Assembly (NCBI GenBank): GCA_963826115.1
Contig: CAWGVS010000012.1
Span: 704,001 to 768,000, forward strand
DNA from: an uncultured Candidatus Rokubacteria bacterium
GTDB taxonomy: Bacteria; Methylomirabilota; Methylomirabilia; Rokubacteriales; DASRDR01
DNA length: 64,000 bases
Reading direction: 5' to 3'
The position numbers were made by a program, and so were the translations under genes. Below are positions 3,752-47,271 of the stretch, in pieces. Position 1 is the first letter of the stretch. Each line of letters starts with the position of its first letter. Below the pieces are notes generated by a model. That model searched no databases, was not told where the DNA came from, and saw only the letters and a program-made list of their open reading frames with translations.

Positions 3752-5277
<1,526 letters not shown>

Positions 5278-7646: not shown

Positions 7647-8534
7647 TCAGGGGGGCCCCGTCAGCCGTGCATGGATCCGCTCCAGCTCGGCCGCCGTCGT
7701 TGGGGCGCTGCTCGTGAGATGCCCGTGGATCCGCTCGAGCTCCGCGGCCGAGGTGAATGGGAGCTCGATCCGGCCGCGCGACAGGTTCCCGACCACGCGG
7801 ACGCGCGTGCCGAGCGCCAGGCGAAGCTCCTCTTCCAGGGCCTCGACTTCCGGGGCTCGGCGACGCGGCTTCGCCCGCGTGGGTCGCCGCGCCTGGACGC
7901 CGGCCTCGGTCGCGCGCACGGACCAGTCCTGGGCAAGGATTCGCTCGCGGAGCCGCAGCTGCGCTGCGGGCGAGGGCAGCCCGAGGAGGGCGCGCGCGTG
8001 CCCCATCGTGAGCCGTCCCGCTCGCAGGTCCTCCTGGATCGGCTCCGGCAGCCGGAGCAGCCGGAGGGCATTCGCAATCGACGAGCGGTCCTTCCCGAGC
8101 CGCCGGGCGAGCTCCTCCTGGGTCCAGCCGAACTCGGCGAGGAGGCGCTGGTAGGCCTGCGCGGCCTCGACCGGGTTCAGGTCCTCGCGGAGCAGGTTCT
8201 CCACGAGCCCGAGCTCCAGGGCCTCCGCGTCGCTGGCCTCGCGCACGATCGCCGGTACCCGGCTGAGGCCGGCCTGCTGGGCGGCCCGCCACCGACGCTC
8301 GCCCACGAGGATCTCGAACTGCGCCCCCCGCGGCCGGACCACGAGGGGCTGGAGGATGCCCGTCGAGCGGATCGACGCCGCGAGCTCGTCGAGCGCCTGG
8401 GTGTCGAAGTGCCGGCGTGGCTGCTGCGGGTTCGGGATCAGGCTCTCGAGGGGGAGCTCGCGTAGCCTGACGCCGTCCTCGGTCTCAGCCGGTGGTAGGA
8501 GGGCGCCCAGACCGCGTCCGAGTGCGCGTTTCAT
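7647..8534 (-). CDS. parB: chromosome partitioning protein ParB/Spo0J
   Basis: MKRALGRGLGALL, QPRRHF, GERRWRA, ENLLREDLNPVE, HTH. Confidence 0.97.
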   Translation of the reverse strand: MKRALGRGLGALLPPAETEDGVRLRELPLESLIPNPQQPRRHFDTQALDELAASIRSTGILQPLVVRPRGAQFEILVGERRWRAAQQAGLSRVPAIVREASDAEALELGLVENLLREDLNPVEAAQAYQRLLAEFGWTQEELARRLGKDRSSIANALRLLRLPEPIQEDLRAGRLTMGHARALLGLPSPAAQLRLRERILAQDWSVRATEAGVQARRPTRAKPRRRAPEVEALEEELRLALGTRVRVVGNLSRGRIELPFTSAAELERIHGHLTSSAPTTAAELERIHARLTGPP

Positions 8535-9312
8535 CACGTCCCAGGACCTCCTTCGCCAGCTCCAGGTACGCGATCGCCCCGGGCGATCGGATGTCGTACT
8601 GGAGGATGGACCGCCCGTGGCTGGGCGCCTCGGACAGGCGGACATTCCGCGGAATCACGGTCGTGAACACCTGGCCCTTGAAGTAGCGCTCGACCTCCGC
8701 CCGGACCTGGGCCGTCAGCGTCGTCCGGCCGTCGAACAGCGTGAACACGATCCCCTCGATCTCGAGCGCGGGGTTCGCCCGGGTCCGGACGGTCTCGAGC
8801 GTCCGGACCAGCTGGGCCAGCCCCTCCAGCGCAAAATACTCGCACTGGAGCGGGATGAGCACCCCCTCGGCGGCGACGAGCGCATTCAGGGTCAGGAGCC
8901 CGAGCGAGGGGGGACAGTCGATCACCACGTAGCGGAACCGGGACCGAATCGGCTCCAGCGCCCCCCGTAGACGGCTCTCCCGGCTAGCCATCGTGGCCAG
9001 ATCCACCTCGACACCAACCAGGTCCGGATTCCCCGGCATGAGGGTGAGTCCCGGGATGGCGGTCTCCCGGAGACTTTCCCCGGCGGGCCGGCCCTCGGCC
9101 AGGACCTCGTAGATCGTACCGCCCTCGTCCCGCGTACCCTCGGGCGTGAGTCCCGCAGTCGCATTCGCCTGGGGATCGAGATCCACCAGCAGGGTGGGCC
9201 GGTCGGCGACGGCGAGGGCGCTCGCCAGACTGACGGCCGTCGTGGTCTTCCCGACGCCGCCCTTCTGGTTCACGACCGCGATGCTACGGCTCTGCTGTGC
9301 GCCCTGTTCCAC
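8485..9312 (-). CDS. parA: chromosome partitioning ATPase ParA/Soj
   Basis: NQKGGVGKTTT, DLDPQANAT, IDCPPSLGLLT, IPRNVRLSEAPSHG. Confidence 0.98.
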   Translation of the reverse strand: MEQGAQQSRSIAVVNQKGGVGKTTTAVSLASALAVADRPTLLVDLDPQANATAGLTPEGTRDEGGTIYEVLAEGRPAGESLRETAIPGLTLMPGNPDLVGVEVDLATMASRESRLRGALEPIRSRFRYVVIDCPPSLGLLTLNALVAAEGVLIPLQCEYFALEGLAQLVRTLETVRTRANPALEIEGIVFTLFDGRTTLTAQVRAEVERYFKGQVFTTVIPRNVRLSEAPSHGRSILQYDIRSPGAIAYLELAKEVLGRDETRTRTRSGRPPTTG

Positions 9313-9916
9313 GTGGAACGTCTGCCTCCCGGGCCGTCCCGCGAATTATAAGAAACCGGCGTCGCCAGGACAATTCCCCTGGGAGGTCCAGGACCACCTC
9401 GCGCCGCGTCCCCGGGCCCGTCCCGGTCGGCCCCACCGATACGACGAGGTGCCCGGCCGGCGCCAGGAAGGGCGCCGCCAGCGCCGCGGCGGACGCCCCG
9501 GGGGCCACCGCCCGCATCGTCACGGTCTGGAATCGGCCCGCAAGCGGGCCGCCGGCCAGCGCCTCCGCACGCCCCCAGTGGACCGCGACCCCCCCAAGGC
9601 CGAGCTCGCGGACCATGTGCCGCAGGAAGTTCGCGCGTCGCCGCGTGGCATCGAGGAGCTCGACCTCCCATTCCGGCCGCGCCAGCTTCAGCACGAGCCC
9701 GGGCACGCCCGCCCCGCTTCCGACGTCCAGGAGCGGCGCCGCCGGGGCGGGGAGCACCGTGAGCCACATGAGGGACTCCAGAACCAGGTGCTGGAGCCGC
9801 GCCAGCCGCGTCCGGTAGGCTGTCAGGCCACCCACGCGCTGCCAGCGCTCGAGCTCGTCCAGGTACCGCGTCACCGCCCCCGGGAATGTCGGGGGCAGCG
9901 TCAGGCCGAGGGCCAC
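9284..9916 (-). CDS. rsmG: 16S rRNA m7G527 methyltransferase RsmG (GidB)
   Basis: HLVLESL, LDVGSGAGVPGL, GRAE, TMRAVA; located upstream of parA; start uncertain. Confidence 0.92.
   Translation of the reverse strand: MALGLTLPPTFPGAVTRYLDELERWQRVGGLTAYRTRLARLQHLVLESLMWLTVLPAPAAPLLDVGSGAGVPGLVLKLARPEWEVELLDATRRRANFLRHMVRELGLGGVAVHWGRAEALAGGPLAGRFQTVTMRAVAPGASAAALAAPFLAPAGHLVVSVGPTGTGPGTRREVVLDLPGELSWRRRFLIIRGTAREADVPRGTGRTAEP
9305..9320. promoter_or_regulatory. parS centromere site
   Basis: TGTTCCACGTGGAACG, 15/16 match to the palindrome TGTTCCACGTGGAACA, next to parAB. Confidence 0.9.
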
Positions 9917-9992
9917 TCCCGCCCGCCGGATCGCCCCGTCGACATCGACGGGCCCCGGCTCGCGCGGCGCGTGGCGCGCGGACGGCCGGCGG

Positions 9993-11732
9993 TCAGGCGC
10001 GCCCGGCCTCCCGCTCCGCGAGCTTGGCGGTCGCGGCGCTCCGGTCGATCAGGTACTGCTGCAAGATGGACAGGCAATTGTTCACGAGCCAGTAGAGCAC
10101 CAGCCCCGTGGGGAACTCGAGGAACATGAACGTGAAGACCACGGGCATGATCAGCATGATCTGAGCCTGGCGCGGGTCCCCGACGGTGGGCGTCATCTTC
10201 TGCTGGATCAGCATCGAGATGCCCATCAAGATCGGCAGGACGTAGTACGGATCCTTCTTCGACAGGTCGGTGATCCAGAACATGAAGTGCGCCCCCTGGA
10301 GCTCGACCGAGTACTGGAGCGTCAGGTAGAGCGCGTAGAAGATCGGAATCTGAACGACCATCGGCAGGCAGCCGCCCATGGGATTCACACCGTGCTTCCG
10401 GAAGAGCTCCATCTGCTCGCGCTGGAAGCGCTGGGGATCCGAGCGGAACTTCGAGCGCAGCGCGTTCAGCTGCGGCTGGATGGTCTGCATCGCCTTCATC
10501 GACCGCATGCTCTTCAGGCTGAGCGGGTAGAACAGGACCTTTACCAGCACGGTGAGCAGGATGATCGCGACGCCGTAGTTCTGGCCGGGCAGGTGGGTGC
10601 CGAAGAAGTTCAGGAGCCAGAGGAGCGGCACGCAGAACCACCACATCGGGAACAGCACCCAGAGGAAGTGCCCGTAGTTCCGGGCCTGCGCGGCCTCCAG
10701 GCCGACCCCGACGCTCCGGAGGCGGACCCACTCCTTGGGGCCGACGTAGACGGTCTCCGTCCCCTGCCAGGTCTGGCCGGCCCCGACTCGGACCTCATGG
10801 AAGGCGAGCCCCACCTGGGCAACATCGCGCGCGCGGCCCCGGGCCAGCCCTGCGCCCGGCCCGCCGATCAGCGCCGCGATGAAGTGGTCGGTCTCGAGGG
10901 CCGCCCACCGCCGGTCCGCGGAGACGATCGCGTCCGGCACGAGGTGTGAGTCCTTGAGCTCGGGGCCTCCGGGGGATTCCTTCGCGTCCTTCAGGACCGG
11001 CTGCGGCGCCTCATAGGCATCGGGATCCGCGCCGGGCCGATCGACCAGGATCCGACCCAGGAGATGCCGGCCGTCCTTGCCCTCGCCGAACGTGTGCCAC
11101 GGCTGGTCCGGCGTGGCTCCGGGCTCCGACACGGGCGTCGCCCAGTACATGAGCACATCGATGGGACCGGCCCCGCGGGGCCCGCCTTCGATCTGGAAGT
11201 CGACCGGCATCGCGTACGAGTCCGCGCGCAACGTGAGCGTGCGTCGGATCCGCAGTCCGTCCGCCGTTGCCCCGGTGAAGCCGAGGCGGGCCTCGGGGGC
11301 GGTCGCCGTGACCTCCACCCGCGCGACGTCGGGTCGGAGGGCCACCAGCTCCAGGCCTTGTCCCGGACGCTGGATCGCCACCGTGAGCGGCCGAAGAGCG
11401 CCCTCCACGACGAGGCGCTTCGGCCCGCGGAGCTCGATGGTCCACGCGGTCACGCTGCCGTCCGCCGCGAAGCTCGCGTGGTAGAGCGGCGTGACGACCT
11501 CGGCGACCGGCGTCGCGCCGCCGCTGGCGCGGGGCACCGCGGCCGGCTGCGTCGCGCCGCCGGGGCCTCCCGTGGCCGGGCCCGTGGCCGGGGTGGTCGC
11601 GGCCGGAGCCGCGGCGGTCGGGGACGCGGGATGCTCCGCCGGGGGCGGGGTGGATGCCCCGAACCAGAGCTGCCAGCCCAGGACCACGGCGACCGACAGG
11701 GCGATCGCTATAAGTGCGCGTTTTTCCATCAC
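9993..11732 (-). CDS. yidC: membrane protein insertase YidC
   Basis: NYGVAIILLT, NPMGGCLPMVVQIPIF, WITDLSKKDPYYVLP, GLVLYW. Confidence 0.98.
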   Translation of the reverse strand: MMEKRALIAIALSVAVVLGWQLWFGASTPPPAEHPASPTAAAPAATTPATGPATGGPGGATQPAAVPRASGGATPVAEVVTPLYHASFAADGSVTAWTIELRGPKRLVVEGALRPLTVAIQRPGQGLELVALRPDVARVEVTATAPEARLGFTGATADGLRIRRTLTLRADSYAMPVDFQIEGGPRGAGPIDVLMYWATPVSEPGATPDQPWHTFGEGKDGRHLLGRILVDRPGADPDAYEAPQPVLKDAKESPGGPELKDSHLVPDAIVSADRRWAALETDHFIAALIGGPGAGLARGRARDVAQVGLAFHEVRVGAGQTWQGTETVYVGPKEWVRLRSVGVGLEAAQARNYGHFLWVLFPMWWFCVPLLWLLNFFGTHLPGQNYGVAIILLTVLVKVLFYPLSLKSMRSMKAMQTIQPQLNALRSKFRSDPQRFQREQMELFRKHGVNPMGGCLPMVVQIPIFYALYLTLQYSVELQGAHFMFWITDLSKKDPYYVLPILMGISMLIQQKMTPTVGDPRQAQIMLIMPVVFTFMFLEFPTGLVLYWLVNNCLSILQQYLIDRSAATAKLAEREAGRA

Positions 11733-11748
11733 TTTATTCGATTGGTCC

Positions 11749-12108
11749 TCATTGGCGTCGAGTCGTCTGCACGAGGGCCCCGGCCACCGCGTCCACGAGC
11801 TGGGGAAAGGGGCTCGAGAGCGCCGCGTGCCGGGCGATGAAGCAGAGCCGCAGGCCGTCCGGTGGGACTAGATCCCGCTGCCGCCGGTAGGCTTCCCGGA
11901 GGCGCCGACGCGCGCGGTTCCGGACCACGCTACCCCCGAGCCGACGGCTCACGGCGAAGCCAACGGCGCGCGGGCCCGGCTCTCGACGCCAGAGCAGTAC
12001 GAACGCCGGGGCCTCCACGCGCGCCCCGCGTCGGAAGAGTCGGTCGAACTCGGCTCGGGACCGGAGCCGCTCCGCCCGCGGCAATCCCGCGGGCGCCGCC
12101 CCGGGCAC
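11749..12108 (-). CDS. rnpA: ribonuclease P protein component
   Basis: ERLRSRAEF...GFAVSRRLGGSVVRNRARRRLRE (RNR motif); probable GTG at 12108. Confidence 0.93.
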   Translation of the reverse strand: MPGAAPAGLPRAERLRSRAEFDRLFRRGARVEAPAFVLLWRREPGPRAVGFAVSRRLGGSVVRNRARRRLREAYRRQRDLVPPDGLRLCFIARHAALSSPFPQLVDAVAGALVQTTRRQ

Positions 12109-12113
12109 TGCGT

Positions 12114-12248
12114 CTAGCCTGTCAGCCGGCGTCGCCCCTTGGCGCGCCGCCGCTTCAACACCTTTCGGCCGCCCTTCGTCGACATACGCGCCCGGAACCC
12201 GTGGGTCTTGGCACGCCGCCGCCGGTTCGGTTGGAACGTCCGCTTCAC
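12114..12248 (-). CDS. rpmH: 50S ribosomal protein L34 (missed by the ORF track)
   Basis: GTG start, [44 protein letters not shown], with AGGAGG SD upstream. Confidence 0.98.
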
Positions 12249-12287
12249 GACTTCCTCCTAGGTGCGTGTTGGGCGCACAGCCCGCCC

Positions 12288-12317
12288 ATCCTACAGATGC
12301 GCTGCGGACCGCGTCAA
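12288..12317 (-). promoter_or_regulatory. putative sigma70 promoter for rpmH operon
   Basis: TTGACG, 18 nt, TAGGAT on the minus strand. Confidence 0.55.
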
Positions 12318-12484
12318 GCACGAGGCCGTCGAGGCCCCCGGTCGTGCGCGGTTGCCGGTCCCGAGACCCCGTGCTATGGTGGGCCGCCCGACGGGGGGAG
12401 CGGTAGGCGCGTCCGCGCCGCCGCGGCTCCTGCGCCGGGCAGGCGATTCGAGTGCGTCAGGCGACGACGGCAGGGCTCCCGGAG

Positions 12485-12516
12485 TTATCCACCGCCGTGG
12501 ATAAGTGTGTGCGTAA
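12485..12516. promoter_or_regulatory. DnaA boxes upstream of dnaA
   Basis: TTATCCACC (12485-12493), inverted TTATCCACG (12496-12504), degenerate TTACGCACA (12508-12516); extended -10 TGCTATGGT at 12372-12380. Confidence 0.8.
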
Positions 12517-12541
12517 CTCGCTCCCGTAGGAAGGTCCCACC

Positions 12542-13846
12542 ATGCGCGACGATATCCACGAGCAGCTCCTGGGCGCCCTCGAGGGGAAGCTCTCGACCGA
12601 GACGCTCGACACCTGGATCCGCCCGCTCCGCGTCCTGGACGTTCGGGACAACCGTGTGGAACTCAGCGTCCCTAATAAGTATTTTCGTCAGCATCTCGAG
12701 CAGCACTACCTCGAGCCCCTGCGGGCGGCCACCGTCCAGGTGGCCGGGCCCCGGGCCCAGCTGGTCCTGACGATCGACCGCACCGCGACCTTGGCGCCCC
12801 CGCCCGCGCCCGTACCGATCGCAGCCGCACCGGATCTCGATCCCCGTTACACGTTCGAGACATTCGTCGTCGGCTCGTCGAACCAGTTCGCTCAGGCCGC
12901 CTGTCTCGCGGTCGCCGAGTCCCCGGCCATCGCGTACAACCCCCTCTTCATCTACGGCGGGGTGGGCCTGGGCAAGACCCATCTCCTCCAGGCCATCGGC
13001 CACCGGCTGTCCCAGAGCCATCCCCACTTCCGGATCCAGTACCTCTCGAGCGAGAAGTTCACGAACGACCTGATCTCGGCGATCCGCCACGACAAGACCC
13101 CGGAGTTCCGGCAGCGCTACCGGACGATCGATCTTCTCCTGATCGACGACATCCAGTTCCTCTCCGGCAAGGAGCGCACCCAGGAAGAGTTCTTCCACAC
13201 CTACGAGGACCTCATGCCCAAGCGGCAGATCGTCCTCTCGAGCGACCGGTCGCCGAAGGAGATCCCGGACCTCGAGGAGCGCCTCCGCTCGCGGTTCCTC
13301 TCGAGCATGCTGGCGGACATCCAGCCGCCCGAGTTCGAGACCCGCGTCGCGATCCTCAAGAAGAAGGCCGAGCTCGACCGCGTGGCCCTCCCGGACGACG
13401 TCGCCTACTTCATCGCCAACCGCGTGAAGTCGAACATCCGCGAGCTCGAGGGCTCCCTGGTCCGGATCCGGGCCTTCTGCAACCTCACCGGCCGGCCCCT
13501 CACCCTCGACCTCGCCCAGGAGGTCCTCGCCAACATCTGGGGCGCCGAGGAGCACCTCGTCACCATCGACGACATCCTCCGCCGCGTCGCCGAGGTGTTC
13601 CACGTCAAGCCTCAGGACCTCCGCGCCAAGACCCGGACCAAGGCGGTCGCCTTCCCCCGCCAGCTCGCGATGTATCTCGCGCGGCAGCTGACGAGCGACT
13701 CCTACGCCGACATCGGCCGGGGCTTCGGCGGCAAGGACCACACGACCGTTCTCCACGCCGTGAACAAGATCGACGCGCTCCTCCAGCAGGACGCCAAGCT
13801 CCGGCGCACGCTCGACCACATCATCAACACCATCCGCCTCGCGTGA
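12542..13846 (+). CDS. dnaA: chromosomal replication initiator DnaA
   Basis: YNPLFIYGGVGLGKTHLL, LLIDDIQF, SNIRELEG, GGKDHTTVLHA. Confidence 0.99.
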   Translation: MRDDIHEQLLGALEGKLSTETLDTWIRPLRVLDVRDNRVELSVPNKYFRQHLEQHYLEPLRAATVQVAGPRAQLVLTIDRTATLAPPPAPVPIAAAPDLDPRYTFETFVVGSSNQFAQAACLAVAESPAIAYNPLFIYGGVGLGKTHLLQAIGHRLSQSHPHFRIQYLSSEKFTNDLISAIRHDKTPEFRQRYRTIDLLLIDDIQFLSGKERTQEEFFHTYEDLMPKRQIVLSSDRSPKEIPDLEERLRSRFLSSMLADIQPPEFETRVAILKKKAELDRVALPDDVAYFIANRVKSNIRELEGSLVRIRAFCNLTGRPLTLDLAQEVLANIWGAEEHLVTIDDILRRVAEVFHVKPQDLRAKTRTKAVAFPRQLAMYLARQLTSDSYADIGRGFGGKDHTTVLHAVNKIDALLQQDAKLRRTLDHIINTIRLA

Positions 13847-14036
13847 GCCGCGTCCTCCCCACCGGTCCCCCGCGCGTCCCGGGCCTGTCCACCACCGTCC
13901 CCCGACTTATCCCCATCGCCGCGCTCCGTGCGCACCCGCACAGGTCAGGCGCCGCGCGACCGCGACCGCGTTGTCCCCAGCCCCTACGTCTCCTCCGACG
14001 ACTGCTTTTTCTTTCTCAGGAGGGTTACTAAGCCCA
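13847..14036. other. oriC (dnaA-dnaN intergenic region)
   Basis: DnaA-box variants TTATCCCCA (~13907) and TTGTCCCCA (13971-13979), followed by GCCC, degenerate trinucleotide repeats and a T-rich tract. Confidence 0.8.
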
Positions 14037-15146
14037 ATGGACTTCCAGGTCGCTCGCGAGCCCTTGCTCCGTGCACTGCAGCTTCTCCAGAACATCGTCG
14101 AGCCTCGCCAGACGCTGCCGATCCTGGCCAACGTCCTGATCGAGGCACGCGAGGGCGGGCTCCGGCTGGCGGCGACGGACCTCGAGGTCGGGGCGCGGGT
14201 CGCGGTGCCGGGCACGGTCAGCCGGCCGGGGGCCATCACGCTCGCGGCCCGAAAGCTGGTCGAGCTCGTGCGGGAGCTGCCGGCCCAGCCGGTGACGTTC
14301 AGCCTCCTCGACAACGGCTGGGTCAAGATCACGTGCGGCGCGGCCCGGTTCAGCCTGGTGGGGTTGCCGGCCGACGAGTACCCGCCGCTCGACGTCAACG
14401 CGGCCGAGGGGAGTCTCGGCGTGGAGGCGGGTCTTCTGCGCACGATGGTCGGCCGGACGAGCTACGCGATGTCGCAGGACGAGAGCCGCCCTTTCCTGAA
14501 CGGGCTCTACCTCGCCGCGCGGAAACAGGAGCTCCGGCTGGTGGCGACCGACGGGCACCGGCTCGCCCTCGCGCGGAGCGCGGTGGACTCCGCGGCGGAG
14601 ATGGCGGGCATCGTGCCGCGGAAGGCGGTCCAGGAGCTCACGCGGGTCCTGGGCGGCGCCGAGCGGGTCGACATCGCGATCGGCGAGAGCAAGTTCTTCG
14701 TGCGCACCGAGGGTTTCGAGCTGGTCTCGAAGCTGGTGGAGGGACAGTTTCCGAACTACGAGCAGGTCATCCCGAAGTCCTCACCGCTTCGGCTCGTGGT
14801 CGAGCGCGAGCCGCTCCTGGCGGCGATCCGGCGCGTTGCCGTGGTCGCCGACGACCGGACGCGCCCCGTCAAGCTCACGGCCAGCGAGGGGCAGGTACGG
14901 CTCTCCGCCCAGAGCCAGGAGCTCGGCGAGGCCGAGGAGACCCTGCCGGCGGAATTCGCCGGGGCCGAGCTGACCATCGGGTTCAACGCGCGCTACGTCC
15001 TCGATGCGCTCGGCCCGATGGATCACCAGTGGACGGTCGTGGGCCTGAAAGACGGCTTGAGCCCGGGCGTGCTCGTCGGCGCCGCGGCGAAGGACGGCGC
15101 GCCGGATGACGCGTATCGCTGTGTTATAATGCCGATGCGTATGTGA
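14037..15146 (+). CDS. dnaN: DNA polymerase III beta clamp
   Basis: ATDLE, VATDGHRLA, KLVEGQFPNYEQVIP, IGFNARY, VIMPMR. Confidence 0.98.
   Translation: MDFQVAREPLLRALQLLQNIVEPRQTLPILANVLIEAREGGLRLAATDLEVGARVAVPGTVSRPGAITLAARKLVELVRELPAQPVTFSLLDNGWVKITCGAARFSLVGLPADEYPPLDVNAAEGSLGVEAGLLRTMVGRTSYAMSQDESRPFLNGLYLAARKQELRLVATDGHRLALARSAVDSAAEMAGIVPRKAVQELTRVLGGAERVDIAIGESKFFVRTEGFELVSKLVEGQFPNYEQVIPKSSPLRLVVEREPLLAAIRRVAVVADDRTRPVKLTASEGQVRLSAQSQELGEAEETLPAEFAGAELTIGFNARYVLDALGPMDHQWTVVGLKDGLSPGVLVGAAAKDGAPDDAYRCVIMPMRM
15122..15130 (+). promoter_or_regulatory. extended -10 promoter inside the dnaN 3' end (recF-gyrB-gyrA)
   Basis: perfect TGnTATAAT in a very GC-rich background. Confidence 0.6.
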
Positions 15147-15163
15147 GGGGAGGCCCGCCCAGG

Positions 15164-18669
<3,506 letters not shown>

Positions 18670-18709
18670 TCCCCGCGCGGCGCTGCGCGGGACCCCGCAG
18701 GAGTGCTTG

Positions 18710-22424
<3,715 letters not shown>

Positions 22425-45900: not shown

Positions 45901-47085
45901 TCAGCGCCCGGTCGGTTCCGGCGCGGCGCAGGCCTCGTCGCCCGCGGCGTGGATCGAGAGGTCGCGGATCGTGGGGGCCTCGCCGCAGAGCGGGCACTTC
46001 GGATCCTTCCGGAGCCGCACCTCGCGGAAGCGCATCCCCAGCGCGTCGTAGGTCAGGAGCCGCCCGATCAGGAGCTCCCCCTTGCCGAGGATGAGCTTCA
46101 CCGTCTCGGTCGCCTGCACCACCCCGATGAGTCCCGGGAGCACGCCCAGGACGCCGGCCTCGTTTCAGGACGGGACGAGGCCCGCGGGGGGCGGGACCGG
46201 GTACAGGCAGCGGTAGCAGGGCCCGCGCTCGGGGGCGAGGACGGTGACCATGCCCTCGAACTGGAAGATCGAGCCGTGGACGTTCGGCTTCCCGGCGAGG
46301 TAGCACGCGTCGTTGACGAGGTACCGCGTGGCAAAGTTGTCGGACCCGTCGACGATGACGTCGTAGTCCTTGATGATCCGCTCGATGTTGTCGACCGTGA
46401 TCCGCTCGGCGTACGGGACCACCGTCACGTCCGGGTTCAGCGCGGTGATCGTGTCGCGCGCGGATTCGACCTTCGGCCGCCCGACGTCCGACGTCCGGTG
46501 GAGCACCTGGCGCTGGAGGTTCGAGAGGTCCACCACGTCGTCGTCGACGACGCCGAGCGTGCCGACGCCGGCCGCCGCGAGGTAGAGCGCCGTCGGCGAG
46601 CCAAGGCCCCCCGCGCCGATCAGCAGCACCTTCGCGCGGAGCAGCGCCTTCTGCCCGGGCTCCCCCACCTGCGTCAGCATGAAGTGGCGGCTGTAGCGCT
46701 CCATCTGGTCCGCGGTGAGGGGCTGGTCCTTGACCAGGGGGAGCTTCAGATCCTTCCACCGCCGGATGCCCCCCGCCATCGAGGTCACGTTCGTGTACCC
46801 GAGGTCGTGGAGGACCTTGCCCGCGAGGAGGGAGCGGAGCCCGGAGAGGCAGTAGAGCGTGAGCGGCGTCTCCGGATCGGGGAACGCCTCCGGGACCTTG
46901 AACTCGAGGAACCCGCGGCTGATCGGCACGGCCCCCGCGACGGCGCCCTCCCGGTACTCGTCGGGGTCCCGCACGTCGATGAGGTTGACGGCCTCGCCGC
47001 GGGCGATGCGGCCCTGCACGTCCTCGACGGTGACCTCGGGGACGGCGCGCTTGGCGTCGGCGACCAGATCGCGATAGGTCTTCAT
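45901..47085 (-). CDS. moeB: rhodanese-MoeB/ThiF fusion (MoeZ-like) with in-frame UGA at 46165-46167; probable selenoprotein, 394 aa
   Basis: YCLSGLRS rhodanese, RYSRH, GAGGLGS, SNLQRQ, PCYRCLYP, then LVPS*NEAGVLGVLPG in the same frame, then CPLC. Confidence 0.88.
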
Positions 47086-47271
47086 GGCTCGGTGGCTCCT
47101 CGGGTGCCGGCGATGCCAGATGCAGGCTCCCTTGCGGCCCGCTCGGTCGTGGAGATTACCACATATCCCGATCGGGTCACGGGGGATATTTCCTCCTTGA
47201 GCGCCCCGGATGGCCGGCGCTACACTGAAGGGCCGGGCTAGAGTGCAAAATTGGATAATGTTGGCTGCTAG

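Follow-up and report, generated by a model that had tools for sequence, protein, structure and literature searches.

The minus strand of the window (the whole 64,000-nucleotide stretch of DNA analysed here) contains at 47085-45901 a single rhodanese-MoeB frame of 394 codons, in which codon 307 is a TGA. Judging from sequence comparison, this UGA is almost certainly decoded as selenocysteine (Sec). The best explanation overall, which we hold with good confidence, is that the gene encodes an intact Sec-containing rhodanese-MoeB that would activate ubiquitin-like sulfur carriers through a selenoester on Sec307.

Gene structure and domains

The initial annotation had placed two separately called open reading frames in one frame, and the translation agrees with it: the gene (45901..47085, minus strand, stop included) gives 306 residues, a TGA at 46167-46165, 87 further residues and a final TGA at 45903-45901, with PPAGLVPS*NEAGVLGVLPG around codon 307. 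A likely ribosome-binding site, AGGAG (47096..47100, minus strand), was read from the sequence 10 nt 5' of the ATG. All the features described below are on the same strand. The N-terminal rhodanese domain comprises residues 19-112 (46750..47031; PF00581, E 4.2e-14), and its active-site Cys79, in the loop CLSGLRS, is encoded by a TGC (46849..46851) that is TGA in six other genomes. The ThiF/MoeB (E1-like) adenylation domain of residues 131-365 (45991..46695; PF00899, E 2.9e-87) runs across the in-frame TGA and covers profile positions 1-237 of 238, i.e. the domain is complete when the codon is read through. Alignment with E. coli MoeB (1jw9) and Uba4 located the glycine-rich nucleotide-binding loop GAGGLG (residues 157-162, 46600..46617). 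Two zinc CxxC motifs were also found by alignment: the first, C290-C293 (46207..46218), lies 5' of the TGA, while the second, C364-C367 (45985..45996), which had been expected downstream, is translated only on read-through. In the alignment, the TGA itself (46165..46167) falls on Cys187 of E. coli MoeB and on the loop cysteine of fungal Uba4 (6yub), and the predicted Sec would occupy the crossover-loop cysteine position, as originally proposed.

In the profile search the gene scored 535.6 bits against NCBIfam NF006444 (PRK08762; cut-off 449) over residues 4-374, and the N-terminal rhodanese with its cysteine, the glycine-rich loop and both CxxC motifs are all present, which places it in this family. 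The match is whole-length and has the same domain order, the difference being a predicted Sec for the loop cysteine. The score against MoeZ (NF005902) was 388 bits, below its cut-off of 647.

With htrA on one side and a glycosyltransferase operon on the other, the gene is on its own, and its neighbours therefore name no client. Gene neighbourhood was tried as a guide to the pathway and rejected: loci of the order show htrA/moaB, glycosyltransferase or nucleotidyltransferase genes, and two more distant loci (L052 and L054) have unrelated neighbours. moaB is nearby in 10 of 32 loci, which is a weak pointer.

Base call and distribution of the TGA codon

Both a check of the base in reads and a search for the TGA in relatives had been recommended. 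Public data from two studies (three runs) yielded four contigs that extend across codon 307, and none of them has an alternative letter at 46165-46167; a fourth run examined (X9) does not cover the codon. TGA307 is no assembly error. In a look for expression, the RNA runs contained only a small share of the sequence words, and the contigs assembled from them belong mostly to other organisms.

For the order (Rokubacteria-type), 41 genomes were searched, 38 matched, and the best 30 loci, our own included, were compared. All 30 carry TGA307, at identities down to 66%. Among 80 loci from the genome_contigs collection, 65 have Cys and two have TGA at codon 307; the other 13 are repeat Rokubacteria and were left out of later counts. 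The best 80 metagenome loci comprise 33 with TGA and 47 with Cys, and no other residue was found at this position. Across the phylum, 151 genomes gave 93 full-length matches, with one TGA in 87, two in three and none in three; the TGA position was checked for 14 regions of this set and for the 30-locus and genome_contigs set. Unpublished genomes (G085, G124 and G074) account for three of the 87 single-TGA rows, and no conclusion depends on them. The UGA is therefore conserved in independent genomes (at least one TGA in 90 of the 93 full-length matches) and is aligned in frame with a conserved Cys of homologues, both of which are criteria for a selenoprotein. A cysteine codon in the reads, or a TGA unique to this genome and lacking recoding machinery, had been named as findings that would speak against recoding; with TGA present in independent runs and in all 30 relatives, neither applies.

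The databases annotate the locus as two proteins of 306 and 80 residues. Both fragments are separate entries in the protein collection, where the full-length form is absent, and among the best 120 protein matches 72 stop at LVPS, 46 run to full length with a Cys and two end in another way. Such entries would suit a nonsense mutation, a sequencing error or a naturally split gene, all of which we regard as very improbable, since the same codon recurs throughout the order and in other phyla and is seen in independent runs, and since a stop here would halve one zinc site and delete the equivalent of MoeB residues 187-249, second CxxC included. Moreover, the codons of E309, A310 and G311, situated 3' of the TGA but ahead of the next start codon, show only synonymous variation in the 30 loci; this constraint at the protein level favours read-through and argues against a split gene.

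A FastTree tree computed from 177 rows (sites of codons 307 and 79 masked, duplicates and partial rows excluded, midpoint root) places all 72 TGA307 rows in one group of 81 with support 95, which also contains two nested Cys groups. The midpoint-rooted tree suggests one gain of Sec307 and two losses. As a separate observation, the full-length enzyme occurs twice in the single bin G130, once with Cys and once with TGA (L255 and L256), which is either a duplicate or a sign of a mixed bin.

The hairpin downstream of the TGA

The 8-bp hairpin described in the initial annotation, starting 12 nt 3' of the TGA and with G at loop position 2, was found as claimed: it reads GTCCTGGG-CGTGCT-CCCGGGAC at 46152-46131 on the minus strand. 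Eight pairs (one of them U-G) enclose a 6-nt loop, CGUGCU, which begins 20 nt past the codon, and this predicted upper stem-loop of a bacterial SECIS (46131..46152) spans codons V312-L319. The bSECIS-type rule, as given in the available part of PMC13188914, calls for a 3-9 nt loop whose first or second base is G, lying 16-37 nt after the UGA, on a stem of 4-16 bp at no more than -7.5 kcal/mol. By our own script of this rule (not bSECISearch itself) the hairpin passes, with an energy of -13.1 kcal/mol and a spacing of 20. Folding energy was discarded as proof of a SECIS, the z-scores against shuffles lying near zero (-0.18 to +0.61), i.e. ordinary for DNA of 72% GC. The significance of the hairpin rests on its conservation.

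The rule was passed by the TGA carriers at 30/30 loci of the order, 33/33 metagenome loci and 2/2 distant loci, and by 46 of 112 Cys homologues (27/65 and 19/47); the loci are related, so that these counts, like the conservation figures below, are descriptive. A fixed-register stem count, in which 0/65 Cys homologues had the stem, was set aside because it overstated the contrast given by the register-free rule. Within the gene, the rule is also satisfied after 29 of 371 codons, partly by the same hairpin seen from neighbouring codons. The codons of VLGVLPG tend to fold anyway, and what the aligned sequences indicate is that the TGA carriers fix the hairpin.

In fact, codons 312-316 are identical in all 30 loci and are the sole sites without synonymous change among 149, counted as the amino-acid-conserved four- or six-fold sites of the 30 order loci. 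Outside residues 308-320, none of 140 comparable sites is invariant, and the mean entropy there is 1.03 bits. For Pro317, 22 of the 30 loci use CCA, which makes a U-A pair; elsewhere, 17 of 794 Pro codons are CCA. Judged by this codon usage, the hairpin sequence is under selection. Four Cys-bearing copies within the order (G151, G155, G130:C197 and G143) have lost the invariant hairpin codons. Loss of selA was considered as the cause of the reversion to Cys and found no support, as selA is retained in each of the four genomes that carry a Cys copy.

Two further groups were observed. The metagenome group L174-L219 is a second TGA307 lineage with a shifted hairpin and a 7-nt loop, AGUUUUG. The nested Cys group of L167-L173, L186 and L213 largely retains the hairpin, as expected after a recent reversion.

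Selenocysteine machinery and genetic code

The genome from which the window comes (G000; 6.2 Mb, 99% complete, 5.3% contamination) was searched for the Sec genes, as had been advised, and all four were present outside the window: selA (C8:83339-84706, 576 bits), selB (C8:81424-83304, 348 bits), selC, i.e. tRNA-Sec with anticodon UCA (C8:85942-86039), and selD (C5:561687-562604, 393 bits), which has its own in-frame TGA in LSHGAG*ACK. A rough scan of the genome returned 92 TGA codons with coding-like flanks, of which 29 pass the SECIS rule, and by eye about 18 of those 29 occur within motifs typical of redox proteins or formate dehydrogenases, e.g. WATWUPYC, DYVUPWC and CNRTUH. By this inspection the genome is likely rich in selenoproteins. 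The approximately 18 further likely selenoprotein genes include thioredoxin/peroxiredoxin-like UxxC, AhpD-like CxxU, DsbA-like and formate dehydrogenase genes.

In the phylum, selA was detected in 135 of 151 genomes (G124 and G160 being counted in this tally). Twelve genomes with a TGA-bearing copy, the unpublished G085 and G074 among them, gave no selA match, which counts against the Sec reading. Five of these were rechecked: selD was found in all five (with its own TGA in four), selB in two and selC in one, and in G025, G029 and G099 no selA, selB or selC was found. Since selA, selB and selC form one block in G000 and these assemblies consist of 220-250 contigs, the missing block in these three genomes is likely an assembly gap.

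UGA can be read by a tRNA-Cys of the type selC*, and every homologue without the TGA has Cys at this position, which would agree with UGA307 being read as Cys (or, through a variant code, as Trp). This is hardly credible for G000. TGA is its main stop codon, terminating 3514 of 5258 genes (crude gene calling) and also the TGA307 gene itself; UGA is accordingly not generally reassigned, and the genome does not belong to genetic code 4 or 25, in which UGA is sense. The search for a UCA-anticodon tRNA-Cys, which had likewise been suggested, returned a single UCA tRNA, which has G73, an extended variable arm and the canonical shape of a tRNA-Sec; the anticodons of tRNA-Cys and tRNA-Trp are GCA and CCA, and selA and selD are intact. 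The initial annotation had left room for either a Sec-containing or an otherwise recoded enzyme: the former part gained from the sel machinery and from the conservation of codon and hairpin, and the latter is made unlikely by the canonical tRNA-Sec and the use of TGA as main stop. Elsewhere in the genome, at C12:686301-686373, ARAGORN called a tRNA-Pyl (CUA) whose mismatched D and anticodon stems suggest that the tRNA has decayed.

Proposed mechanism and candidate carriers

SelB and the downstream hairpin would read UGA307 as selenocysteine. The adenylation motifs are intact in the alignment and candidate Gly-Gly carriers occur in the genome, and from its sequence the protein is quite likely to adenylate a carrier with subsequent sulfur transfer. 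The relay can be modelled on yeast Uba4, whose loop Cys225, according to the available part of PMC6007339, forms a thioester with the carrier before transfer to the persulfide of the rhodanese cysteine. First, the ThiF domain would adenylate the C-terminal Gly-Gly of the carrier, as follows from the family. Second, Sec307 would attack the adenylate and form an acyl-selenoester, where Cys225 of Uba4 gives a thioester. Third, the carrier would be handed to a persulfide on rhodanese Cys79 and released as a thiocarboxylate. By this analogy, we somewhat favour Sec307 as the acyl acceptor. Sec is a stronger nucleophile than Cys.

A less probable arrangement is that Sec is inserted but that Sec307 serves otherwise, either resolving an acyl-persulfide or acyl-disulfide, a role that has been proposed for Cys184 of ThiF, or keeping the loop reduced, while the rhodanese persulfide attacks the adenylate directly. 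E. coli ThiF, in which the cysteine at the loop position (Cys184) makes an acyl disulfide (PMC12596934), agrees with this, as does E. coli MoeB, for which the available part of PMC6007339 describes the MoeB/MoaD reaction without a thioester, so that an acyl-accepting role of the loop residue is not obligatory. According to the portion available of PMC9312934, selenoproteins with an assigned function are also mostly redox enzymes. On the other side stands Uba4, which is rhodanese-fused: according to the same part of PMC6007339, a thioester is formed on its loop cysteine, which is not needed for a reductive cleavage.

For an enzyme acting through a Sec307 selenoester, G000 offers several potential clients. 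There are two ThiF-family genes for eight ThiS-family matches, including a MoaD adjoining MoaE and a ThiS adjoining a glycine-oxidase-like gene, and of the two ThiF-family genes the TGA307 gene alone carries a rhodanese. Given eight carriers and one rhodanese-bearing ThiF gene, the enzyme is likely a shared activator for MoaD in molybdenum cofactor synthesis, ThiS in thiamine synthesis and the carrier of the Mec-CysO-cysteine synthase type. This simplest reading follows by analogy from mycobacterial MoeZR, which serves MoaD and CysO (PMC3227635, available part), and G000 has both carrier kinds. The second ThiF-family gene, a Cys-only paralogue of 262 residues in a threonine-synthase-like/carrier cluster, could serve some of the carriers. 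One of the eight ThiS-family matches is the carrier of a Mec(JAB)-carrier-cysteine synthase-Rrf2 cluster in the C5:963549 region (L121), which represents the mycobacterial type of cysteine pathway and itself encodes no activating enzyme.

Relatives with two TGA codons

In six genomes, the rhodanese Cys79 position is TGA in addition to codon 307. Four of them belong to the order, G090 (L249), G106 (L251), G163 (L250) and G025 (L252). The fifth locus is labelled Deltaproteobacteria (L052, TGA at 1454 and 2138) and the sixth Planctomycetota (L054, TGA at 4232 and 4919), and the genomes of both possess selA and tRNA-Sec; G025 is among the genomes in which selA, selB and selC were not found. A hairpin passing the rule follows TGA79 in 6/6 double forms, versus 15/180 Cys79 copies, and TGA79 never occurs without TGA307 among the 186 loci spanning both sites. 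On the FastTree tree the double-TGA forms need two to four changes. We consider it very likely that double-Sec enzymes are real. TGA was found at the rhodanese and loop cysteines and not at the four zinc ligands, and the repeated change from Cys to Sec at exactly residues 79 and 307 suggests, as far as a sequence pattern can, that both are catalytic. No further double-TGA forms were present among the best 80 matches listed from metagenome contigs.

A carrier gene beside the selenocysteine genes

A ThiS/MoaD-like gene ending in Gly-Gly (C8:86097-86333; L130:10095-10334) is located 58 nt 5' of tRNA-Sec, followed in the order selC-DUF3105-unknown-selA-selB. tRNA-Sec lies within the approximately 1.5-kb flanks of this carrier in 18 of 30 relative loci, and carrier and selA are at most 10 kb apart on the same contig in 17 of the 25 genomes covered by both surveys. 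In the remaining eight, selA is on another contig (six), 47 kb away (one) or without a match (one). The linkage of carrier and sel genes is usual in the order, and we treat it as a lead only.

One may ask whether the enzyme loads this dedicated carrier with selenium and thereby feeds selenium metabolism. The linkage just described would fit such a role, as would the double-Sec forms, which would put selenium at both catalytic sites. We find this improbable, and equally so the full E1-rhodanese relay for selenium, which would combine a Sec307 selenoester, its transfer in the double-Sec relatives to a second Sec on the rhodanese, and a dedicated carrier from beside the sel genes that bears selenium in place of sulfur. 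The proximity of carrier and selA is absent in 7/7 genomes of other orders, two of which have the TGA-bearing enzyme, and the carrier was not found beside selC within the short flanks of two distant double-Sec genomes. Moreover, the carrier follows a lytic transglycosylase gene as constantly as it adjoins the sel block, so inherited gene order suffices to explain its position. SelD already provides selenium, and the ten best of 20 literature matches for "selenocarboxylate" were chemistry papers. The selenium-carrier step is the weak link of the whole selenium relay.

Comparison with known systems

With a ThiF/MoeB domain and a predicted Sec at the loop cysteine, the TGA307 gene belongs to a selenoprotein family predicted since 2005, the family itself being only predicted. 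As far as the available parts of the sources go, this MoeB family was predicted from 11 sequences in the Sargasso Sea survey of 2005 (PMC1088965) and comprised 19 sequences in GOS 2008 (PMC2398784); reviews of 2022 (PMC9312934) and 2026 (PMC13188914), the latter in its catalogue, where MBT7809913.1 represents the family, give one Sec for MoeB, and PMC1976440 has no MoeB selenoprotein in its data set. Neither a double-Sec MoeB nor a biochemical study of the MoeB selenoprotein family was found in the literature searched. The 2026 review also mentions, in the part available, a Methylomirabilota genome with 63 predicted selenoproteins (PMC13188914). The study underlying it may already list the TGA307 gene, and a Rokubacteria or double-Sec MoeB may already be listed by Deng et al. 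2026 or by deep-Sep.

The likeness to the Sargasso family, as described in the accessible sections of PMC1088965, is close. Sec is at the identical crossover-loop site in 9/9 proteins compared (of 11), GVLGVLPG is shared, and the hairpin core is near-identical. However, the rhodanese domain is C-terminal in those Sargasso proteins that are long enough, whereas it is N-terminal (PRK08762 type) in the Rokubacteria gene. The host of TGA307 is a soil bacterium of the Rokubacteria type. The 2026 table gives the family a single Sec, while six relatives of our gene carry the second TGA at the rhodanese cysteine. New here are the N-terminal rhodanese, this second TGA in six genomes and the carrier gene beside the sel block.

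Yeast Uba4 and mycobacterial MoeZR/MoeBR resemble the TGA307 enzyme in the fusion of an E1-like domain to rhodanese (PMC6007339 and PMC3227635, available parts), but their rhodanese is C-terminal and Cys is used, in contrast to the N-terminal rhodanese and predicted Sec of our enzyme. MoeZ proteins mostly have no second CxxC according to the same part of PMC3227635, whereas the TGA307 gene has it. E. coli MoeB (1jw9) and ThiF (1zfn, 1zud) share the adenylation domain, the two zinc CxxC motifs and the loop position of Cys187/Cys184; they have neither rhodanese nor Sec and obtain their sulfur from a separate protein.

These results correct an annotation error that runs across a large soil lineage, in which a likely central activator of sulfur carriers looks broken because databases store it as fragments of 306 and 80 residues. 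Catalogued selenoproteins are mostly redox proteins, and in the TGA307 enzyme Sec would act as the nucleophile towards an acyl group. MoeB, ThiF and Uba4 each use the loop cysteine differently, and the natural Cys/Cys, Cys/Sec and Sec/Sec versions make the question testable; the double-Sec relatives are the part that most deserves the attention of specialists.

Away from this gene, a reading of the translations at 7647-21139 of the window gave parB/parA, yidC, rnpA, dnaA, dnaN, recF, gyrB and gyrA, a set that makes it likely that the window includes the region of the replication origin.
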